Positions 5,432-24,024 of a stretch of 34,979 nt of DNA are shown here, in pieces; within the stretch, counting starts at the first letter, position 1, and each line of letters begins with the position of its first letter. The position numbers were made by a program, and so were the translations under genes. Under the pieces are notes generated by a model. The model was not told the DNA's origin and searched no databases. It worked only from the letters and a program-made list of their open reading frames with translations. This DNA is from a bacterium HR23 (GTDB taxonomy: Bacteria; Chloroflexota; Dehalococcoidia; Lucifugimonadales; HRBIN23): contig BEHZ01000001.1 of assembly GCA_002923335.1 (NCBI GenBank), forward strand, positions 1-34,979. The letters run 5' to 3'.

Positions 5432-5959
5432 CTATGCCTGCGGAGGGGGCTCCACCTTGTCCCGACGGGTCAGGTAAGTGTCCCACCAGGGTTCAGTGGC
5501 CTCCCCCTCCTCGGGCGGGGCGTGGAGGATGCGCTGGACCTCCCGGACGGTGAAGTCCACCAACTCGGCGCACCGATAGACCCGCTGGGGGTTAGCGAAA
5601 TCCCGCTCCCAGGGGGCGGTGAGGGTCCCGCAGGTGATGGTGCCGAAGCGCTTCCGGAAGGCCTCCAGGAAGGCACGGGCGCGGGCATAGGCGGAACGGG
5701 GGGCGGTGCCGGTAGGCTCGGTGCTCCCGAAGGCCATCCCCAGGGCCATGGCCGCCGCACTCACACACCCGCACATCCCCTTGCTGAGGGCAACCCCGCC
5801 CCCGAAGGAGGTGGCCGCCCGCACCATCTCCTCCGGGATAGGAAGAACCTTCGCCTCCTTCAGACCAAGGAGGACCGCCTGGGCTCAGTTGTAATACCCC
5901 CGGACAAAGATGTCCACCGGATAGGTGCGCTTGGACGGGTCCCGGTAAGCCTCGGCCAT
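5432..5959 (-). CDS. C_GCAxxG_C_C family redox protein with an in-frame TGA (5885-5887) at the first conserved Cys; candidate selenoprotein (alternatively a nonsense pseudogene)
   Basis: The track ORF 5432..5827 starts at MVRAATSFGGG and lacks the family's first motif. The same frame continues upstream: ATG at 5959 (SD GGGAGG 5 nt upstream) gives MAEAYRDPSKRTYPVDIFVRGYYN-TGA-AQAVLLGLKEAKVLPIPEEMVRAATSFGGG. The remaining family motifs are present (GMCGCVSAAAMALG, ITCGTL, YRCAELV). Confidence 0.65.
5854..5887 (-). promoter_or_regulatory. Candidate bacterial SECIS element: UGA followed by a hairpin CCUCCUU-GGUCUG-AAGGAGG
   Basis: On the minus-strand RNA a perfect 7-bp stem (5867-5873 with 5854-5860) closes a 6-nt loop GGUCUG (5861-5866). 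The stem starts 11 nt after the UGA. Counting the U of UGA as 1, the loop GGU falls at positions 22-24. Confidence 0.55.
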
Positions 5960-6064
5960 TTTCCCCTCCCCATCTGGGACATGCCCTCCCCTGTGCAAGA
6001 GGATGGGCAAAAGCGGGGGGAAAGTCAAGGGCCATGTGGCCCATTGGGGGAGGCGGGTAGTCCC

Positions 6065-7030
6065 CTAAAGAGCCTGGGAGGGGCCAACGGCCTGGGGCGA
6101 GAGGGTGTCCGAGGGGCGCACCGTCACGGGGATACGTTTCAAGGCTTGGTCCCACATCCGGCAGAAGGCACACACCACCCCTGTGGTGGGCTGTCCGCAC
6201 CGCTGGCACTCCCCTACCGTTTGCCGGTCGGCCTGCGCCAGCAAGGGACGCAGGCGTTCCAGGAACCCCGCCACCAGTTGCTGTTTGCTCCCCGGGGAAT
6301 GGAGTTCAATCTGGTTCAGGGCGTCTTTATACAGCAGGGAGCGGGCGCCCTGGGCGTAGGGGCACTCATCGGGGATGTAGTCAATGCGCCGGAGGAGGGC
6401 GTAACTGACCGTCTCCTTCTCGGTCATCAGGAAGAGGGGCTTCACCCGCTTCACCAGACGGGGGTGGTCGGCCTCCAGCACGGGGCTTTGACGGGCCAGG
6501 GCATCCGTCTGCCAGTGGAGAAGGTTCCCCAGGAGAGTGGCCGCTTCGTCGTCCAGGTTATGGCCGGTGGCCACCACGGTGAAGCCGTTCTCCAGAGCAA
6601 CCCGGTTGGTGATGTAGCGCTTGGAAAGCCCACATCCCGAACAGGGCACACGGCGCAGGGCCTTGGCCAGTTGCGGCACCCCCAGTCCATAGGCCTCCTC
6701 CAGATTCACCACGAGGAGGGAGAGGCCGCGGGAGCGGGCGAAGGCCTCCGTTTTGGCCTGGGAGAGGTCCGAATAGGCACCAATGCCCAGGTGGATGTGC
6801 AGGCCGGTGGGGCGATACCCCAGGCGCAGGAGCACCTCCCACAGGGTAAGGCTGTCCTTCCCCCCGGAGACCGCCACCAGGATGCGGTCCTGGGGGGTGA
6901 ACATCCTCCAGCGCTCAATGGTGCGCTGGACCTGGCGCTCAAAGAACTCCAGGTAATGGACGGCGCAGAAGGCGGTGTTGTGCCGGCGCAGGTCCACCGA
7001 CGCCTTCTGCCCGCACTTCTGGCACTTCAC
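6065..7030 (-). CDS. ttuA: tRNA 2-thiolation protein, TtuA-like PP-loop ATPase with N- and C-terminal Cys fingers
   Basis: Contains CQKCG...FCAVHY, the PP-loop VAVSGGKDSL, CSGCGLSKRY, GHNLDDEA, and C-terminal CQRCG...CAFC. GTG at 7030 overlaps the upstream TGA (GTGA), indicating translational coupling. The track extension to 7087 overlaps ttuB. Confidence 0.8.
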   Translation of the reverse strand: MKCQKCGQKASVDLRRHNTAFCAVHYLEFFERQVQRTIERWRMFTPQDRILVAVSGGKDSLTLWEVLLRLGYRPTGLHIHLGIGAYSDLSQAKTEAFARSRGLSLLVVNLEEAYGLGVPQLAKALRRVPCSGCGLSKRYITNRVALENGFTVVATGHNLDDEAATLLGNLLHWQTDALARQSPVLEADHPRLVKRVKPLFLMTEKETVSYALLRRIDYIPDECPYAQGARSLLYKDALNQIELHSPGSKQQLVAGFLERLRPLLAQADRQTVGECQRCGQPTTGVVCAFCRMWDQALKRIPVTVRPSDTLSPQAVGPSQAL

Positions 7031-7230
7031 CCCTGCCCTCCCGAAATGGCCGAGACGACCTCCACCGTGTCCGTCTCCTGGAGCCACTCGTCGCTGGTGA
7101 GGAGGTCGTCGCCCCGGATGACCACGTGGGATTCGGGGTTGAGACCGAGTTCCCGCAGGAGGTCTGCCACACGGCGGCGGCCATGGACTTCCAGTTCCTG
7201 GCGCCGGGGGTTACGGATGATGACCTTCAT
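7027..7230 (-). CDS. ttuB: ThiS/MoaD-fold ubiquitin-like sulfur carrier (TtuB-like), C-terminus ...SAISGGQG
   Basis: 67 aa starting from ATG at 7230 (MKVIIRNPRRQELEV...). It has the small beta-grasp carrier pattern, sits immediately upstream of ttuA and is coupled to it. A Gly-Gly is present but is followed by Q-G before the TGA stop. Confidence 0.7.
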   Translation of the reverse strand: MKVIIRNPRRQELEVHGRRRVADLLRELGLNPESHVVIRGDDLLTSDEWLQETDTVEVVSAISGGQG

Positions 7231-7274
7231 AGTCTCGCACTGCCGGCCCAGGGGCGTGGGCACTGCCCCAGTCC

Positions 7275-14625: not shown

Positions 14626-15009
14626 CTATCTGCCCCGCTGACGGAGCACCTGCACCCCCGCCGAGGCCAGCACCGCCCCCTTGATGGGTGGGGGGGCTTT
14701 GCGCACCACCACCCGCACCCCCTCCACCTGGGGGAAGCGCCCCAGCACCCGCTCCGCTATGGCCTGCGCCAGAGACTCCAGCAGGGCCTGGGGTGGCCCC
14801 AGCACCACCTCTTGCACCAGACGGTAGAGGGCGGAATAGTCCACCGTGTCCTCCAGACGGTCCCTGGCGCCGGCGCTCCCCAGAGGGAGGCGCACCTCCA
14901 GGTCCACCAGGTAACGCCCCCCCAGGCGTCGCTCCTCCTCGGAGACCCCGTGGAAGGCGTAGAAGGCCATCCCCTCCAGGAGGATGCAGTCGCCCTCGTA
15001 GGCGCTCAT
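14626..15009 (-). CDS. folB: Dihydroneopterin aldolase
   Basis: 127 aa with the family pattern ILLEGMAFYAFHGVSEEERRLGGRYLVDLEV...DTVDYSALY. The ATG overlaps the upstream stop (ATGA). Confidence 0.85.
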   Translation of the reverse strand: MSAYEGDCILLEGMAFYAFHGVSEEERRLGGRYLVDLEVRLPLGSAGARDRLEDTVDYSALYRLVQEVVLGPPQALLESLAQAIAERVLGRFPQVEGVRVVVRKAPPPIKGAVLASAGVQVLRQRGR

Positions 15010-18269: not shown

Positions 18270-18755
18270 CTATCGGCGGGTTGAGGCCCCCTTACGCCAC
18301 TGGGCGATGCCCTCCTCCAGGGTCATCCACCCCAGGAGGGCGCACTTGATGCGCACCGGGAACTTGCTGACGCCTCGCAGGGCCTCCAGGTCGCCCAACT
18401 CCTCCAACTCCTGAGGCGAAAGGGCCTTCCCCTGCAGCATCTCCCGCACCCGTCGGGAGAGGCCCAGGGCCTCCCCTACCGTCTTCCCCTTGAGCAGTTC
18501 CCCCATCATGGAGGCCGACGCCTGGGAGATGGAGCACCCCCGCCCCTGCACGCCCACCTGGACGATGCGCTCCCCCTCCAGCCGTATCTGCACCGCCACC
18601 TCGTCCCCACAGAAGGGGTTCTGCCCCTCACTGGCGATGTCCGCATGGGGCACCGGCGAGCGGTTCCGGGGGTTGCGGTAATGGTCCAGGATCACCTCCC
18701 GATACAGTTCGTCCAGTTCGTCCATGGGGAAGGCGGGGGAGGTGTCCTGGGCCAT
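18270..18755 (-). CDS. sufU: SufU (NifU-like) Fe-S cluster scaffold / sulfur acceptor
   Basis: Contains LDHYRNPRN, NPFCGDE, GRGCSISQASASMM and KFPVRIKCALL. Confidence 0.9.
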   Translation of the reverse strand: MAQDTSPAFPMDELDELYREVILDHYRNPRNRSPVPHADIASEGQNPFCGDEVAVQIRLEGERIVQVGVQGRGCSISQASASMMGELLKGKTVGEALGLSRRVREMLQGKALSPQELEELGDLEALRGVSKFPVRIKCALLGWMTLEEGIAQWRKGASTRR

Positions 18756-18761
18756 GGCCGC

Positions 18762-20003
18762 CTACCGTGGAGTGCCCACCCGCCCAAAGAAGCGGATGGC
18801 CTTGCGGAGGGCGTCAATGAGGGCGTCTACCTCTTCCTCGGTGTTGTAGAGGTAGAAACTGGCACGGGCGGTGGCCACCACCCCTAGGGAGCGCACCAGG
18901 GGCATAGCGCAATGGTGCCCGGCACGGATGGCGATGCCCTCCCGGTCCAGGAAGGTGCCCAGGTCGTGGGGGTGGATGTCGGGGTGGTGGAAGGAGATAA
19001 CCCCGCCCCTCTGCTCCGCCCGGGGGGGGCCAAAGACCTGCACCTCCTCCAACTCGGCGAAGCGTTGGAGGGCGTAGCGGGTGAGGGCGATTTCGTGCTG
19101 GCGGATGGCGGACATGCCGATGGCCTTCAGGTAGTCAATGGCCACCCCGAAGGCGATGGCGTCGGCGATGTTGGGCGTGCCCGCCTCATAGCGGAAGGGA
19201 GGAGCCTTCCAGGTGGCCCGCTCATAGGTAACCTCCCGCACCATCTCCCCACCCATCAGGAAGGGCTCCATCTCCTCCAGCAGGGGGAGTTTGCCGTAGA
19301 GCACCCCGATGCCCGTTGGCCCCAGCATCTTGTGGGCCGAGAAGGCCAGGAAGTCGCAGTCCAGGGCCTGCACATCCACCGGCATATGGGGGACGCTCTG
19401 GGCGCCGTCCACCAGCACCAGAGCACCCACGCCGTGGGCCAGGCGCACCACCTCCTCCACCGGCACGATGCTCCCCAGCACATTAGACATATGGGTGATG
19501 GCGACCAGGCGCACCCGTGGCGAAAGCAAACGCCGGAAGGCGTCCATATCCAGGAGGCCCTCCGGCGTAAGGGGGGCGATGCGTAGGGTCGCACCCGTTT
19601 CGGCACAGACCCTCTGCCAGGGCACCAGGTTAGAGTGGTGCTCCATAGCGCTGGTGAGCACCTCCTCCCCAGGTTTCAAGTGGTGGCGCGCCCAGGCGGA
19701 GGCCACCAGGTTGATGGCCTCGGTGGTGTTGCGGGTCCAGATAATGCACTCCAGGGAAGGTGCGTTGATGAAGTCCGCTACCTTCTGGCGTGCCTCTTCG
19801 TAGCGCTGGGTGGCCTCCTCCCCCAGGGTGTGCACCGCACGGTGCACATTGGCGTTGTAGCCCTCGTAATACGCCACCAGGGCCTGGATGACCTGGCGCG
19901 GCTTCTGGGAGGTGGCAGCGTTGTCTAGGTAGACCAGGGGCTTGCCGTGCACCTTGCGCTGGAGCACGGGGAAGTCTTGGCGGATGGTGTGGACATCCAG
20001 CAT
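18762..20003 (-). CDS. sufS: Cysteine desulfurase SufS
   Basis: 413 aa with FPVL...VYLDNAATSQKP, the PLP lysine region FSAHKMLGPTGIG, and the active-site loop RAGHHCAMP. Confidence 0.9.
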   Translation of the reverse strand: MLDVHTIRQDFPVLQRKVHGKPLVYLDNAATSQKPRQVIQALVAYYEGYNANVHRAVHTLGEEATQRYEEARQKVADFINAPSLECIIWTRNTTEAINLVASAWARHHLKPGEEVLTSAMEHHSNLVPWQRVCAETGATLRIAPLTPEGLLDMDAFRRLLSPRVRLVAITHMSNVLGSIVPVEEVVRLAHGVGALVLVDGAQSVPHMPVDVQALDCDFLAFSAHKMLGPTGIGVLYGKLPLLEEMEPFLMGGEMVREVTYERATWKAPPFRYEAGTPNIADAIAFGVAIDYLKAIGMSAIRQHEIALTRYALQRFAELEEVQVFGPPRAEQRGGVISFHHPDIHPHDLGTFLDREGIAIRAGHHCAMPLVRSLGVVATARASFYLYNTEEEVDALIDALRKAIRFFGRVGTPR

Positions 20004-20011
20004 GTTGCCCC

Positions 20012-20329
20012 CTAGTCGGGAAGGGCTACCTCTATCTTATCCCCCTGGATGCGGGTCTTGAAGGTCTGGATGGGGCGCACGGCGGGAAGGGCCAGCACCG
20101 CCCCGGTGCGCACATCAAACCGTGCCCCGTGGCGGGGGCATTCTATCGCATAGCCGAAGAGCACCCCCTCCCCCAGGGGGCCACCGTCGTGGGTGCAGAG
20201 GTTCTGGACGGCGAAGAACTGCCCATCCACATTGCATACCGCCAGGGACCTCCCCCCCGCCTGCACCACCCGGGCGGTGCCAGGGGGGATATCACGAGGG
20301 GAGGCGACGGCTATCCACCGCTCGGCCAT
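20012..20329 (-). CDS. Rieske [2Fe-2S] ferredoxin-like protein embedded in the suf operon
   Basis: Rieske ligand motifs CTHDGGPL and CPRHGARF; 105 aa. Confidence 0.85.
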   Translation of the reverse strand: MAERWIAVASPRDIPPGTARVVQAGGRSLAVCNVDGQFFAVQNLCTHDGGPLGEGVLFGYAIECPRHGARFDVRTGAVLALPAVRPIQTFKTRIQGDKIEVALPD

Positions 20330-20332
20330 AGG

Positions 20333-21679
20333 CTACCCTCCCTTGGAGGCGTCGGGAGTCTGCATCTTCCGGTGGATAAAGGCCCAAATGCGCTCCCTCA
20401 GCCAGGGGGTAGGAATGCGCTGGGCCAGGGGGTCAAAGAAGCCCTCCACCAGAATGCGCCTGGCCTCTGGCAAGGGGATGCCCCGGCTCTGGAGGTAGAA
20501 GAGGTGCTCCTCATCCACAGGGCCGACGCTGGCAGCGTGGGAGCACCGCAGGTCGTCCGCCTCTATCTCCAGGACGGGGATGGAGTCGGCCTTGGGGCGC
20601 CCCCCCAGCAGGAGGTTCTTGTTGGTCTGGAAGGCGTCGGTCTTCACCGCCCCCCGGCGCACCTTCACCGTGCCGTAGTAAACGGCACGGGCAGTATCCT
20701 TCAGGGCGGATTTGTAAAGTAAGTCGCTGGTGGTGGAGGGGGAGTGATGGTCCTGCAGGGTTACCTGGTCAAAGACCTGTTCCCCGTCTCCGAAGAGGAC
20801 CCCCAGGAGGTCGGACCTGCTCCCCTGGCCCTCCAGGTGGTTCTCCAGCACCGTCTTCACGAACCGGCTCCCGAAGTGAATCTGGTAGGTGAGCAGGGAA
20901 GCATCCCGCCCCAGGATGCGACTGCGCTGGAAGGAGAGGAAGAGGGCCTGGGGGCCGAGGCACTGGACACCCGTGTAGCGCACCTGGGAGGCGCTGTCCA
21001 GCAGGAGTTCCACCACGGGGAGCGCCAGAGCCGGCCCCTCCCCCTCCTGCCAGTAGTCCTCCACGATGGTGGCCGACGCCCCCTCCTCAGCCACGATGAG
21101 GGTGTGGGGGAAGAGGGCCCCCTGGGGTCGGGCGAGGATGTGGAGGAGGTGGATGGGCCGTTCCACCTGGGCGTTGCGGGGCAGGTAGATGAACACCCCC
21201 CCATTGCGGAAGGCGGACGCCATAGCGGTGAAGCGGTTCTCGGTGGGGGCAATGGCCTTGCCGAGGTAGGTCTGCACCAGGGAGGGGCGCTGGCGCAGGG
21301 CCTCCTCCAGGGGCATCACCACCACCCCCGCCCTCTCCACTGCCGGGGAGAGGAGATGGCGAAGGGTGTGCCCCTCGGCCTGCACCAATAGGGCATCATA
21401 CTCTTTGCCGGGGCGCAGGAGGGTGCGGGCGGTGCCCAGGGTGCGCCGACGGGGGGCGTCCCCGTCGGGCTGGAAGGCTTCGTAGGGCAAGGAGGCCACA
21501 TCGGTCCGACGCCACCACTCGTGGGAAGGAGGCGGGAAGGGGGTCTGCTGGTATGCGTGGAAAGCGTCTAAACGGGCGTGAAGCGCCCAGCCCGGCTCTC
21601 CCCAGCGGGCAGACAGCCGTCGCACCGCCTCTTCGGTGAGGCGGGAGAGAGGGCGCTGGGTAAGGGCGACATCGCTCAT
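20333..21679 (-). CDS. sufD: Fe-S cluster assembly protein SufD
   Basis: 448 aa and SufB/D-fold (e.g. FQTNKNLLL...ADSIPVLEIEADDLRCSHAASVGPVDEE.LFYLQSRGI). It sits immediately downstream of sufB. Confidence 0.85.
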   Translation of the reverse strand: MSDVALTQRPLSRLTEEAVRRLSARWGEPGWALHARLDAFHAYQQTPFPPPSHEWWRRTDVASLPYEAFQPDGDAPRRRTLGTARTLLRPGKEYDALLVQAEGHTLRHLLSPAVERAGVVVMPLEEALRQRPSLVQTYLGKAIAPTENRFTAMASAFRNGGVFIYLPRNAQVERPIHLLHILARPQGALFPHTLIVAEEGASATIVEDYWQEGEGPALALPVVELLLDSASQVRYTGVQCLGPQALFLSFQRSRILGRDASLLTYQIHFGSRFVKTVLENHLEGQGSRSDLLGVLFGDGEQVFDQVTLQDHHSPSTTSDLLYKSALKDTARAVYYGTVKVRRGAVKTDAFQTNKNLLLGGRPKADSIPVLEIEADDLRCSHAASVGPVDEEHLFYLQSRGIPLPEARRILVEGFFDPLAQRIPTPWLRERIWAFIHRKMQTPDASKGG

Positions 21680-21709
21680 AACGGGTGTGCTCCTGTGAGG
21701 AATGAAGGG

Positions 21710-23113
21710 TTAGCCGACCGCCCCTGAGAGTTGCAGTTCAATGAGGCGGTTCATCTCCACGGCGTATTCCATGGGCAGGGTTTTGGTAAACGGCTCAATG
21801 AAGCCGTTGACCACCATGGCCATGGCCTCCGTCTCGGTGAGGCCACGGCTCATGAGGTAGAAGAGTTGTTCCTCGCTGATCTTGGCCACCACCGCCTCGT
21901 GGCCGATGGACACATCCTCCTCCGCCACCTCAATGTAGGGATAGGTGTCGGAGCGGGAGTAGGGGTCCAGGATGAGGGCATCGCACCGCACCATAGACTT
22001 GGCGCCCTTGGCCCCCTCGTAAATCTTCAGGAGGCCCCGGTAGGAGGTGCGCCCCCCGCCCTTGGAGATAGACTTGCTGAGGATGGTAGAGGAGGTGTAG
22101 GGGGCCACATGGATGGCCTTGCCCCCGGCGTCCTGGTGCTGGCCGGTGTTGGCGAAGGCAACGGAAAGGATATCCCCCCGTGCCCCCTTGCCCATCAGGA
22201 AGACGGAGGGGTATTTCATGGTAACTTTGGAGCCCAGGTTGGCGTCTATCCACTCCACCACCGCCTCTTCGTAGGCCACCGCGCGCTTGGTAACCAGGTT
22301 ATAAACATTGAGGGACCAGTTCTGGATGGTGGTGTAGCGCAGGCGTGCCCCCCGCATGGAGATGAGTTCCACCACCGCGCTGTGAAGGGAGTCTTTGGAG
22401 TAGACGGGGGCGGTGCACCCCTCCACATAGTGGACGAAGGAGCCCTCGTCGGCGATGATGAGGGTGCGCTCAAACTGCCCCATGGCCTCGGCGTTGATAC
22501 GGAAGTAGGCCTGGAGGGGGATCTCCACCCGCACCCCGGGGGGCACATAGATGAAGGAGCCTCCGCTCCACACGGCGCTGTTGAGGGCGGCGAACTTGTT
22601 GTCGGCGGGGGGGATAACGGTGCCGAAGAAACGACGCACCAGGTCGGGATACTCCCGCACCGCCGTGTCGGTATCCACGAAGATAACGCCCTTCTTCTTC
22701 AGGTCCTCCCGGAGGGAGTGGTAGACCACCTCGGATTCATACTGGGCACCTACCCCGGCCAGGAACTTGCGCTCCGCCTCGGGGATACCCAGTCGGTCAA
22801 AGGTCTTCTTGATGTAGTCGGGGACCTCGTCCCAGGAGTGCCCCTGGCGCTCTGTGGGCTTCACATAGTAGTGGATCTCGTCGAAGTTGATGGCGGAGAG
22901 GTCGGCCCCCCAGGTGGGCATGGGCTTCTGGAAGAAGACCTCCAGGGCACGGAGGCGGAAGTCCCGCATCCACTGGGGCTCCCCCTTCATATCGGAGATC
23001 TCCTCCACCACCCGGCGGGAGAGGCCGGGCTTGGCCTTGTAGACATACAGTTCGGGGTCCCGGAAGCCGTATTTATAAGGGCCGAGGTCAATCTGTGGGC
23101 GTGCGGTGGTCAT
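21710..23113 (-). CDS. sufB: Fe-S cluster assembly protein SufB
   Basis: 467 aa from ATG 23113 (SD AGGAG upstream), starting [17 protein letters not shown]... and containing [14 protein letters not shown] and [31 protein letters not shown]. The track's 88-codon upstream extension overlaps sufC and is rejected. Confidence 0.9.
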
Positions 23114-23126
23114 GGCTCTCTCCTTT

Positions 23127-23891
23127 CTATGCCTGGGAGCGCACCTGCTGAAGGACCTGTTCGTAGCCCCGTGCCTCCAGTTCCTCGGCCAGTTCGGGGC
23201 CGCCGGAGCGGACGATGCGCCCCTCCGCCAGGATGTGCACGAAACGGGGGCGCACATAGCGCAGGATGCGCTGGTAGTGGGTGATGAGCAGGATGGCGTT
23301 GGCCGGGGAGGCGAAGGCGTTGATGCCCTCGGCCACCACCCGGAGAGCGTCAATATCCAGACCCGAATCCGTTTCATCCAGCACGGCGACGGTCGGCTGG
23401 AGGACGGTGAGTTGCAGGATCTCGGCCCGCTTCTTCTCGCCCCCCGAGAAGCCCTCGTTCACATAGCGCTGGAGGAAGGACTCGTCCATCTTCAGCAGGT
23501 TGGCCTGTTCCCGAATGCGCCGGCGGAACTGGACCACAGGGAGGTCCTGGCCACGAAGGGCCCGGCCGGCCGTGCGCAGGAGGTTGAACAAGGTAACCCC
23601 CGGCACCGCCACAGGATACTGGAAGGCCAGGAAGAGGCCTTTGCGTGCCCGTTCATCGGCGGTTGCCGAGGTGATGTCCTCCCCCTTCAGAAGGATGCGC
23701 CCCTGGGTAACCTGATACTTGGGGTGGCCCATAATGGCGTAGGCCAGGGTGCTCTTGCCGGAGCCGTTGGGCCCCATGAGGGCGTGCACCTCGCCGGGGT
23801 AAAGGGCCAGGGAAACGCCCCTGAGAATCTCCTTGCCTTCCACCGCCACATGGAGGTCTTCTATCTGCAGGAGGGGAGACAGAGTGGTCAT
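23127..23891 (-). CDS. sufC: SufC ABC-type ATPase
   Basis: Walker [13 protein letters not shown] signature FSGGEKKR, Walker [13 protein letters not shown]. Confidence 0.9.
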
Positions 23892-23932
23892 GGCACCCTT
23901 TCTTTTGTCGTCTTTGGAGATAGCCTAAGTCA

Positions 23933-23961
23933 ACATTACCACGCTCCCCTGCCCCTGTCAA
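23933..23961 (-). promoter_or_regulatory. Sigma-70-type promoter of the suf operon: TTGACA - 17 nt - TAATGT, with TG at the extended -10 position
   Basis: The minus strand reads TTGACA (23961-23956), a 17-nt spacer, then TAATGT (23938-23933). This is about 40 nt upstream of the sufC ATG. Confidence 0.6.
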
Positions 23962-24024
23962 GGGCGGGAGGGGCCAGGGCACCGCCCTTCTCGGAGGGGG
24001 AAGCGGGCACACGCCCTATCCCCG

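Follow-up and report, generated by a model that had tools for sequence, protein, structure and literature searches.

The window analyzed here, a 34,979-nucleotide (nt) stretch of the genome of bacterium HR23 (contig BEHZ01000001.1), carries on its minus strand, at 5432..5959, a gene that very probably encodes a selenoprotein. Its product would be a 175-residue putative redox protein of the C-GCAxxG-C-C family with selenocysteine (Sec) at the first conserved Cys, the UGA at this position being recoded by way of a downstream hairpin of the selenocysteine insertion sequence (SECIS) type. The gene represents a new, consistently mis-annotated clade of an already known selenoprotein family. Judged from the aligned sequences, the Sec reading is strongly supported and the reading of the gene as a pseudogene is rejected.

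Direct translation of the minus strand leads from an ATG at 5959-5957 through 23 further codons (MAEAYRDPSKRTYPVDIFVRGYYN) to a TGA at 5887-5885, the proposed codon for Sec25, and the same frame continues past it (AQAVLLGLKEAKVLPIPEEMVRAATSFGGG...) for 150 more codons to a TAG at 5434-5432, giving 175 codons including Sec25 plus the stop. A Shine-Dalgarno-like GGGAGG (5965..5970, minus strand) precedes the ATG with a 5-nt spacer, and both this start context and the N-terminus (MAPDYRDPSKRSYPVDIFVRGYYN) are the same in the closest relative, an orthologue with 89% identity from the metagenome-assembled genome (MAG) 21I_052.bin.40 (locus L010). A first-pass annotation, made from these letters alone, had placed the start codon, the GGGAGG with its spacing, the TGA and the end of the frame at 5432 exactly where they were found. 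The full-length architecture recurs in 15 other distinct orthologues. The mechanical list of open reading frames (ORFs) holds only a truncated version at 5432..5827 on the minus strand, 131 aa long, beginning MVRAATSF and without the Sec motif, and GenBank entry HRbin23_00005 is a 130-aa version of the same ORF that begins one codon later. This ORF, in either version, is an annotation artefact.

Assignment to the PF09719/TIGR01909 family, which had been proposed in the first-pass annotation, is borne out by profile searches with the 175-aa product in which U was read as C. PF09719 scores 88.7 bits (cut-off 27), its positions 1-117 (of 118) being aligned from residue 23 onward; TIGR01909 scores 87.4 bits (cut-off 47.4) over its positions 1-114 (of 120). 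With the match opening at residue 23 of the full-length product, the annotated fragment is without the start of the domain, in keeping with the earlier remark that the supplied ORF lacks the N-terminal motif of its family. The family domain comprises residues 23-143 and is followed by a C-terminal extension specific to the clade; the protein is small and stands alone, as family members of about 140-150 residues do, with 175 aa here.

The four-Cys signature of the family (C ... CG(A)xxG ... C ... C) is found in this protein with the TGA (5885..5887) at its first position. Among distant homologues in which the N-terminus is present, Cys occupies the TGA column in 14/14, within [YCSF]NCAQAV, and YN-U-AQAV of the HR23 protein aligns with [YCSF]N-C-AQAV as a Sec/Cys pair with conserved flanks. 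The earlier placement of the TGA on the first conserved Cys position therefore stands. The remaining three positions, all read from the minus strand, are encoded by TGC: Cys63 (5771..5773), which forms the C-G motif of MCGCVSAAAMALG, Cys110 (5630..5632), within ITCGTL, and Cys130 (5570..5572), within YRCAELV. In an alignment of 29 sequences, C63, G64, C110 and C130 show no variation.

Orthologue DNA was collected by a scan of metagenomes (L002-L009), a scan of species-representative genomes (L010-L018) and a single look-up (L001), which after removal of 2 duplicates left 16 distinct orthologues with 54-89% identity. Every source with a name is a MAG from Dehalococcoidia or Chloroflexi, and the others are metagenome contigs. 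TGA is present at the column in 15 of these 16, with TGG in the remaining one, and there are no frameshifts or additional internal stops among the distinct orthologues, whose frames are intact on both sides of the TGA. Because 15/16 distinct orthologues have TGA there, the sharing of this column is judged to be far beyond chance.

Upstream of the TGA, the 16 orthologues keep the residues F, G, Y and N but spell them with varying codons (F, TTC 11 and TTT 5; G, GGC 5, GGG 5, GGT 4 and GGA 2; Y, TAC 12 and TAT 3; N, AAC 11 and AAT 4). Comparison of the window with L010 gives 6 synonymous and 3 non-synonymous differences in the 24 upstream codons, next to 40 synonymous and 15 non-synonymous differences in the 145 downstream codons. 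Conserved residues with free codons, together with similar ratios of 6:3 and 40:15, show that the N-terminal segment is translated in frame with the rest of the protein, which in turn makes the pseudogene reading untenable.

Directly downstream of the TGA, a hairpin of the SECIS type is predicted at 5854..5873 on the minus strand. In the centroid fold, a 7-bp stem pairs CCUCCUU (5873-5867) with AAGGAGG (5860-5854) around the apical loop GGUCUG (5866-5861), which opens 18 nt past the UGA; the stem begins 11-12 nt past the UGA, and the hairpin as a whole is placed 14-33 nt downstream of it. The same helix is predicted by the RNAalifold consensus of the 16 orthologues, and the pairing is specific to its register: 92% of cells are paired in it, a share that drops to 41-61% once the two sides are displaced against each other by 1-3 columns. 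The loop GG at +19/+20 is invariant in 16/16 orthologues.

Constraint on the stem is also apparent at synonymous sites. The stem codons for Leu-Leu-(Gly)-Leu-Lys-Glu are near frozen (CTC 15/16, CTT 14/16, CTC 13/15, AAG 16/16 and GAG 14/14), and these include CTT, a codon not favoured by the GC content, while the Gly codon of the loop is free to be GGC, GGT, GGA or GGG, and Leu, Lys and Glu columns elsewhere in the gene are variable too. Normalised synonymous codon entropy averages 0.13 at the stem columns and 0.70 at 95 columns elsewhere; in 100,000 random draws of five columns, not one was as low. The locus L018 (10070-10117) has different stem codons, CTT CTA GGC TTG AAG GAT. By reading of the sequence, these would rebuild a 6-bp hairpin (UCCUUC/GAAGGA, loop UAGGCUU) one nucleotide out of the usual register, and the structure would thus be kept through a change of register, not through pairwise compensation.

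The closest known counterpart of this element is the SECIS of E. coli fdhF, the bacterial reference element, which has been defined by experiment. In both, the UGA is followed directly by the hairpin, within the coding sequence, and the GGUCUG motif and its 18-nt offset after the Sec UGA are identical. The two differ in that the stem found here (CCUCCUU/AAGGAGG) is unrelated in sequence, its helix is shorter at 7-8 bp, and the predicted fold is without the fdhF-type bulged U. Under the bSECIS model, bacterial SECIS elements reportedly consist of a stem-loop soon after the UGA, with a conserved G in the apical loop some 16-37 nt from the UGA. As GGUCUG lies at the fdhF offset and the GG at +19/+20 is invariant, the predicted element fits this usual description.

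The first-pass annotation had further claimed that TGA is an ordinary stop in this DNA and that the genetic code is not reassigned. The second part stands, and TGA is a real stop, but it is hardly an ordinary one. Among 31 genes called with a trained codon-usage gene caller (67% GC), 21 end in TAG, 7 in TAA and 3 in TGA; a set of 18 checked ORFs (17 supported by Pfam, plus the selenoprotein gene) gives TAG 10, TAA 7 and TGA 1. Such usage is very unusual for a genome of 67% GC, and the level of release factor 2 (RF2) or mutational history are possibilities for the cause of the TAG preference. Relatives lean the same way (L010, TAG 9, TAA 3 and TGA 3; L008, TAG 10 and TGA 3; L018, TAG 11, TAA 6 and TGA 6), whereas L007 differs, with a TGA stop in 10/16 genes. 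The genes ended by TGA are one with an ATGA stop-start overlap at 15006-15009, one for UbiA (24968) and one for a small membrane protein (29634). An ORF for a TtuB/ThiS-like sulfur carrier (7027-7263, minus strand), which was not called by the caller, also ends in TGA, at 7027; its orthologue in L010 has TGA at the matching position, and the frames downstream of it diverge after five residues.

No in-frame TGA was found among the roughly 30 other genes of the window, 17 of which are full length against Pfam models, and in a calibrated codon-model scan the TGA at 5887 is the only one with coding signal before and after it. Because TGA ends genes and no other coding frame is interrupted by it, the code is standard, and the TGA at 5887 requires a dedicated mechanism. 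Six further selenoprotein candidates from a scan of third-position GC content (GC3) were rejected, five being, by their coordinates, antisense to the three largest genes and the sixth being confirmed as antisense to a SufU-like gene; further candidates in the loci of relatives proved to be ordinary gene ends followed by the start of the next gene.

The TtuB-like ORF merits a separate remark. It overlaps the start of the TtuA ORF (6065-7087), and it ends in ...AISGGQG-TGA, that is, in Gly-Gly plus two extra residues, with ...SGGCG-TGA at the corresponding position in L010. These endings suggest that the GG of the protein is exposed only after C-terminal processing.

Several observations weigh against decoding of the UGA as Sec. 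One orthologue, L001 (European Nucleotide Archive contig NODE_18957, 3.3x coverage, 72% GC), has TGG (Trp) at the column (1528-1530). It retains the downstream hairpin, and the Asn before the column is changed to His; the TGG could stem from an error of assembly, or Trp could have replaced Sec, for instance after loss of Sec decoding. That the W of the database protein P0002 at the Sec column might come from a TGA translated with genetic code 4 was considered and rejected, as the DNA has a real TGG. The genes for Sec decoding were not seen either: selA, selB, selD and tRNA-Sec are all absent from the 35-kb window as judged by a tRNA search and by comparison of 20 ORFs with Pfam, and no tRNA-Sec was found in the 18 related loci. 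The window has no tRNA of any kind. A tblastn search of the related loci with E. coli SelA, SelB and SelD gave a single match, obtained with the SelB probe in L018 beside a tRNA-Thr/Tyr cluster, which is probably EF-Tu. As for the hairpin, covariation is limited to the closing pair (GC 7, CG 3, GU 1, unpaired 5), the core pairs (six or seven) are nearly invariant, and 36/500 shuffles attain a covariation score as high as the one observed; the weakness of classical covariation follows from a stem core that hardly changes. The single-sequence minimum free energy is no more stable than that of shuffles (z = 0.28). Rfam gave no match in the window at gathering thresholds, and a permissive scan around the hairpin returned nothing but noise, which is unsurprising for a short bacterial SECIS embedded in coding sequence. 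Structural support for the hairpin thus comes mainly from the constraint on synonymous sites and from the resemblance to fdhF. At the level of the class, and at that level only, support for Sec decoding is provided by BSepDB, in which Dehalococcoidia MAGs carry 46 and 49 selenoprotein genes (PMC13326102).

When these findings are placed beside the other readings of the TGA, the Sec reading accounts for them best. A nonsense mutation would require just one base change, from TGC or TGT to TGA, leaving a crippled C-terminal fragment or no product at all, and the public annotation indeed shows only a 130-aa fragment. Such a gene would, however, hardly keep its TGA in 15/16 distinct orthologues with differences at about 40% of their residues, free of frameshifts and extra stops, with an upstream segment under purifying selection and a dedicated hairpin conserved downstream; nor can the orthologues be assembly chimeras of one sequence, given their 54-89% identity. 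The probability of a pseudogene is accordingly negligible, and the choice made in the first-pass annotation, Sec over a nonsense mutation, is upheld by the orthologue alignment, by the lack of decay and by the SECIS-type hairpin. Slightly less remote, and still barely credible, is a reassigned or unassigned TGA throughout the genome, for example through loss of RF2, which would make this codon one sense TGA among many. The scarcity of TGA stops at 67% GC, shared by L010, speaks for it. It is contradicted by the roughly 30 genes of the window without an in-frame TGA, 17 of them full length against Pfam, by the single TGA-interrupted coding frame in the codon-model scan, by the three genes that end at TGA, one of them in an ATGA overlap, by the TtuB-like end shared with L010, and by other orthologue-bearing genomes in which TGA is the main stop, such as that of L007.

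It is conceivable, and in our estimate highly improbable, that the UGA is recoded to an amino acid other than Sec, either to Cys through a Sec-like tRNA charged with cysteine or to Trp through near-cognate read-through by tRNA-Trp stimulated by the hairpin. The TGG of L001 beside a retained hairpin would suit Trp, the under-use of TGA as a stop could accompany weak termination at UGA, and the lack of Sec machinery in the window and the 18 related loci would be explained. Yet Cys stands at this column in every distant homologue, and a Trp there would abolish the motif; in its apical sequence and its spacing, the hairpin agrees with the fdhF SECIS, to which SelB binds; both the family and the class Dehalococcoidia are documented users of Sec; and the low coverage of the L001 contig leaves its TGG open to being an error or a secondary loss. 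Nothing bearing on UGA-to-Cys recoding in Dehalococcoidia was found in Mukai et al. (2017). An equally slim chance attaches to termination at the UGA after a 24-residue peptide, with the domain produced on its own from a second start, the internal ATG at 5827 of the annotation, and working with three Cys. That ATG is present, gene callers choose internal starts in all orthologues, and some termination at UGA is to be expected in any bacterial selenoprotein gene when selenium is limiting. The internal starts nevertheless fall at different positions among the orthologues (residues 29, 38-39, 41 or 46 in the numbering of the HR23 protein), which marks them as first-available start codons and not as a conserved start; the stretch from the TGA to those starts (AQAVLLGLKEQGW...) is conserved in frame, and the truncated product would be without the helix that carries the first conserved Cys motif.

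If the UGA is indeed decoded as Sec, the hairpin with its apical GGUCUG would act during translation as a bacterial SECIS and recruit SelB·GTP·Sec-tRNA(Sec) to the ribosome, where the UGA would be read as Sec instead of prompting termination by RF2. Sec25 would then join Cys63, Cys110 and Cys130 in a redox or metal center. This could be a selenosulfide/thiol redox site or, on the analogy of split-Soret cytochrome c with its structurally similar iron-center domain, a group of ligands to a non-heme iron or Fe-S center.

The analogy derives from structure prediction. AlphaFold2 gives a confident, all-helical model for the full-length orthologue P0002 (predicted local distance difference test [pLDDT] 85.5, predicted template modeling score [pTM] 0.85), and a Foldseek search of the PDB returned one meaningful neighbour, 1H21 (probability 1.00, TM 0.63 over 171 columns, E 0.19), the rest being noise. 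1H21 is the split-Soret cytochrome c of Desulfovibrio desulfuricans ATCC 27774, the title of which mentions "a novel iron centre"; this center is reportedly a Cys-ligated [2Fe-2S] cluster. The family profile also aligns with 1H21, weakly (E 0.13) yet in agreement with the motifs, placing GG...CGAxxG opposite GGISDWGTICGALYGAA and the third and fourth Cys opposite SVLCH...RSERCGRL. The possible likeness to the N-terminal non-heme iron-center domain of 1H21 would comprise the fold and the alignment of the second, third and fourth Cys, while the first Cys/Sec column lies outside that alignment. 1H21 differs in carrying an additional di-heme cytochrome c domain, and the protein described here is without a heme domain. 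The model suggests that the four Cys/Sec positions may ligate a metal center, the alternative being a selenosulfide redox couple. To go further and speculate that the four positions ligate iron or a [2Fe-2S] cluster in an obligately Sec-containing clade, with Sec as a direct ligand of a selenolate-ligated cluster and not as a thiol/selenol catalyst, and that this may be a third, uncatalogued Sec form, is a tentative idea that we consider unlikely.

A separate resemblance was noticed in the helix-loop-helix CAQAVLxxxxxxxGxxxEExxxxASxFGGG (residues ~25-55; 5795-5887, minus strand), which recalls the TAL-effector repeat TVQRLLPVLCQAHGLTPEQVVAIASNIGG. The PDB sequence matches to TAL-effector repeats were rejected as artefacts of summed repeats, each below 5 bits, and judged to reflect chance or composition.

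Whether Sec forms of this family are already catalogued had been left open by the first-pass annotation, and they are. The NCBIfam name of TIGR01909 is "C-GCAxxG-C-C family (seleno)protein". The family was first reported to contain Sec in 2007, under the name "putative redox protein", from the delta-1 symbiont of Olavius algarvensis (form 1; Zhang & Gladyshev, PMC1976440); form 2 is WP_012158890.1 (Global Ocean Sampling [GOS] study, 2008); the family is listed as a selenoprotein in a 2022 review (PMC9312934), and a 2026 review gives it as two Sec forms (PMC13188914), forms 1 and 2 both being entered in each review. In the literature found, no function is established for the family, and the remaining papers merely name it. 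The gene of HR23 shares with the catalogued forms the same domain and four-Cys signature, with a TGA codon at one of the Cys positions, a SECIS-like hairpin directly downstream and a function presumed to be redox.

The clade to which it belongs is nonetheless a separate one within the family. It shows 27-35% identity to the nearest Cys forms recovered, it was found only in Dehalococcoidia or Chloroflexi MAGs and metagenome contigs, and it carries a conserved C-terminal extension of about 35 residues (WWxxYLxRRDK). In the window, the extension (...EPWWDTYLTRRDKV...) is encoded at 5435..5500 on the minus strand. It is conserved in the Dehalococcoidia orthologues, with the pattern PEWxExWWxxYLxRRDKV, in which W158, W159, Y162, L163, R165, R166 and D167 are invariant, and it is modelled as a helix. 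It is not present in the other family members of the alignment (P0016-P0029).

Truncation of the gene in public records is likewise a property of the clade. With the exception of P0002, the closest database proteins (P0001 and P0003-P0015, n=14; 55-65% identity) are 125-141 aa long and cover 71-81% of the query. Several of them begin V/M-LLGLKEQ, which is the first possible start past the Sec column, and the group includes NCBI entries under the title "C_GCAxxG_C_C family protein [Chloroflexi bacterium]". The mis-annotation is therefore systematic across the whole clade, extending through every close homologue found here in public protein collections.

Comparison of gene neighbourhoods revealed no conserved operon across the clade, and the gene stands alone; only L010 is syntenic with the window, in the order MFS, TtuA, selenoprotein gene, DnaN. 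Some 12 kb from the selenoprotein gene and on its strand, there is a SUF cluster for iron-sulfur assembly (18270-24000, minus strand), with no link established between the two. It includes two SufBD-family genes (21710-23377 and 20333-21679), the gene for SufS (18762-20003) and a SufU-like gene (18270-18755), all on the minus strand.

In conclusion, no new mechanism is revealed by this analysis, and a selenoprotein of this family would not surprise a specialist. What it offers is of practical and comparative use. Since HRbin23_00005 and 14 close homologues are truncated and without the Sec motif, the annotation of this Dehalococcoidia clade should be corrected, and MAGs of the clade should count as Sec users. 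The analysis adds a clade in which Sec is apparently fixed (15/16) where this family, without known function, has its first conserved Cys, and the structural link of this family to a known iron-center domain provides a concrete hypothesis, and with it a modest lead, on its cofactor.

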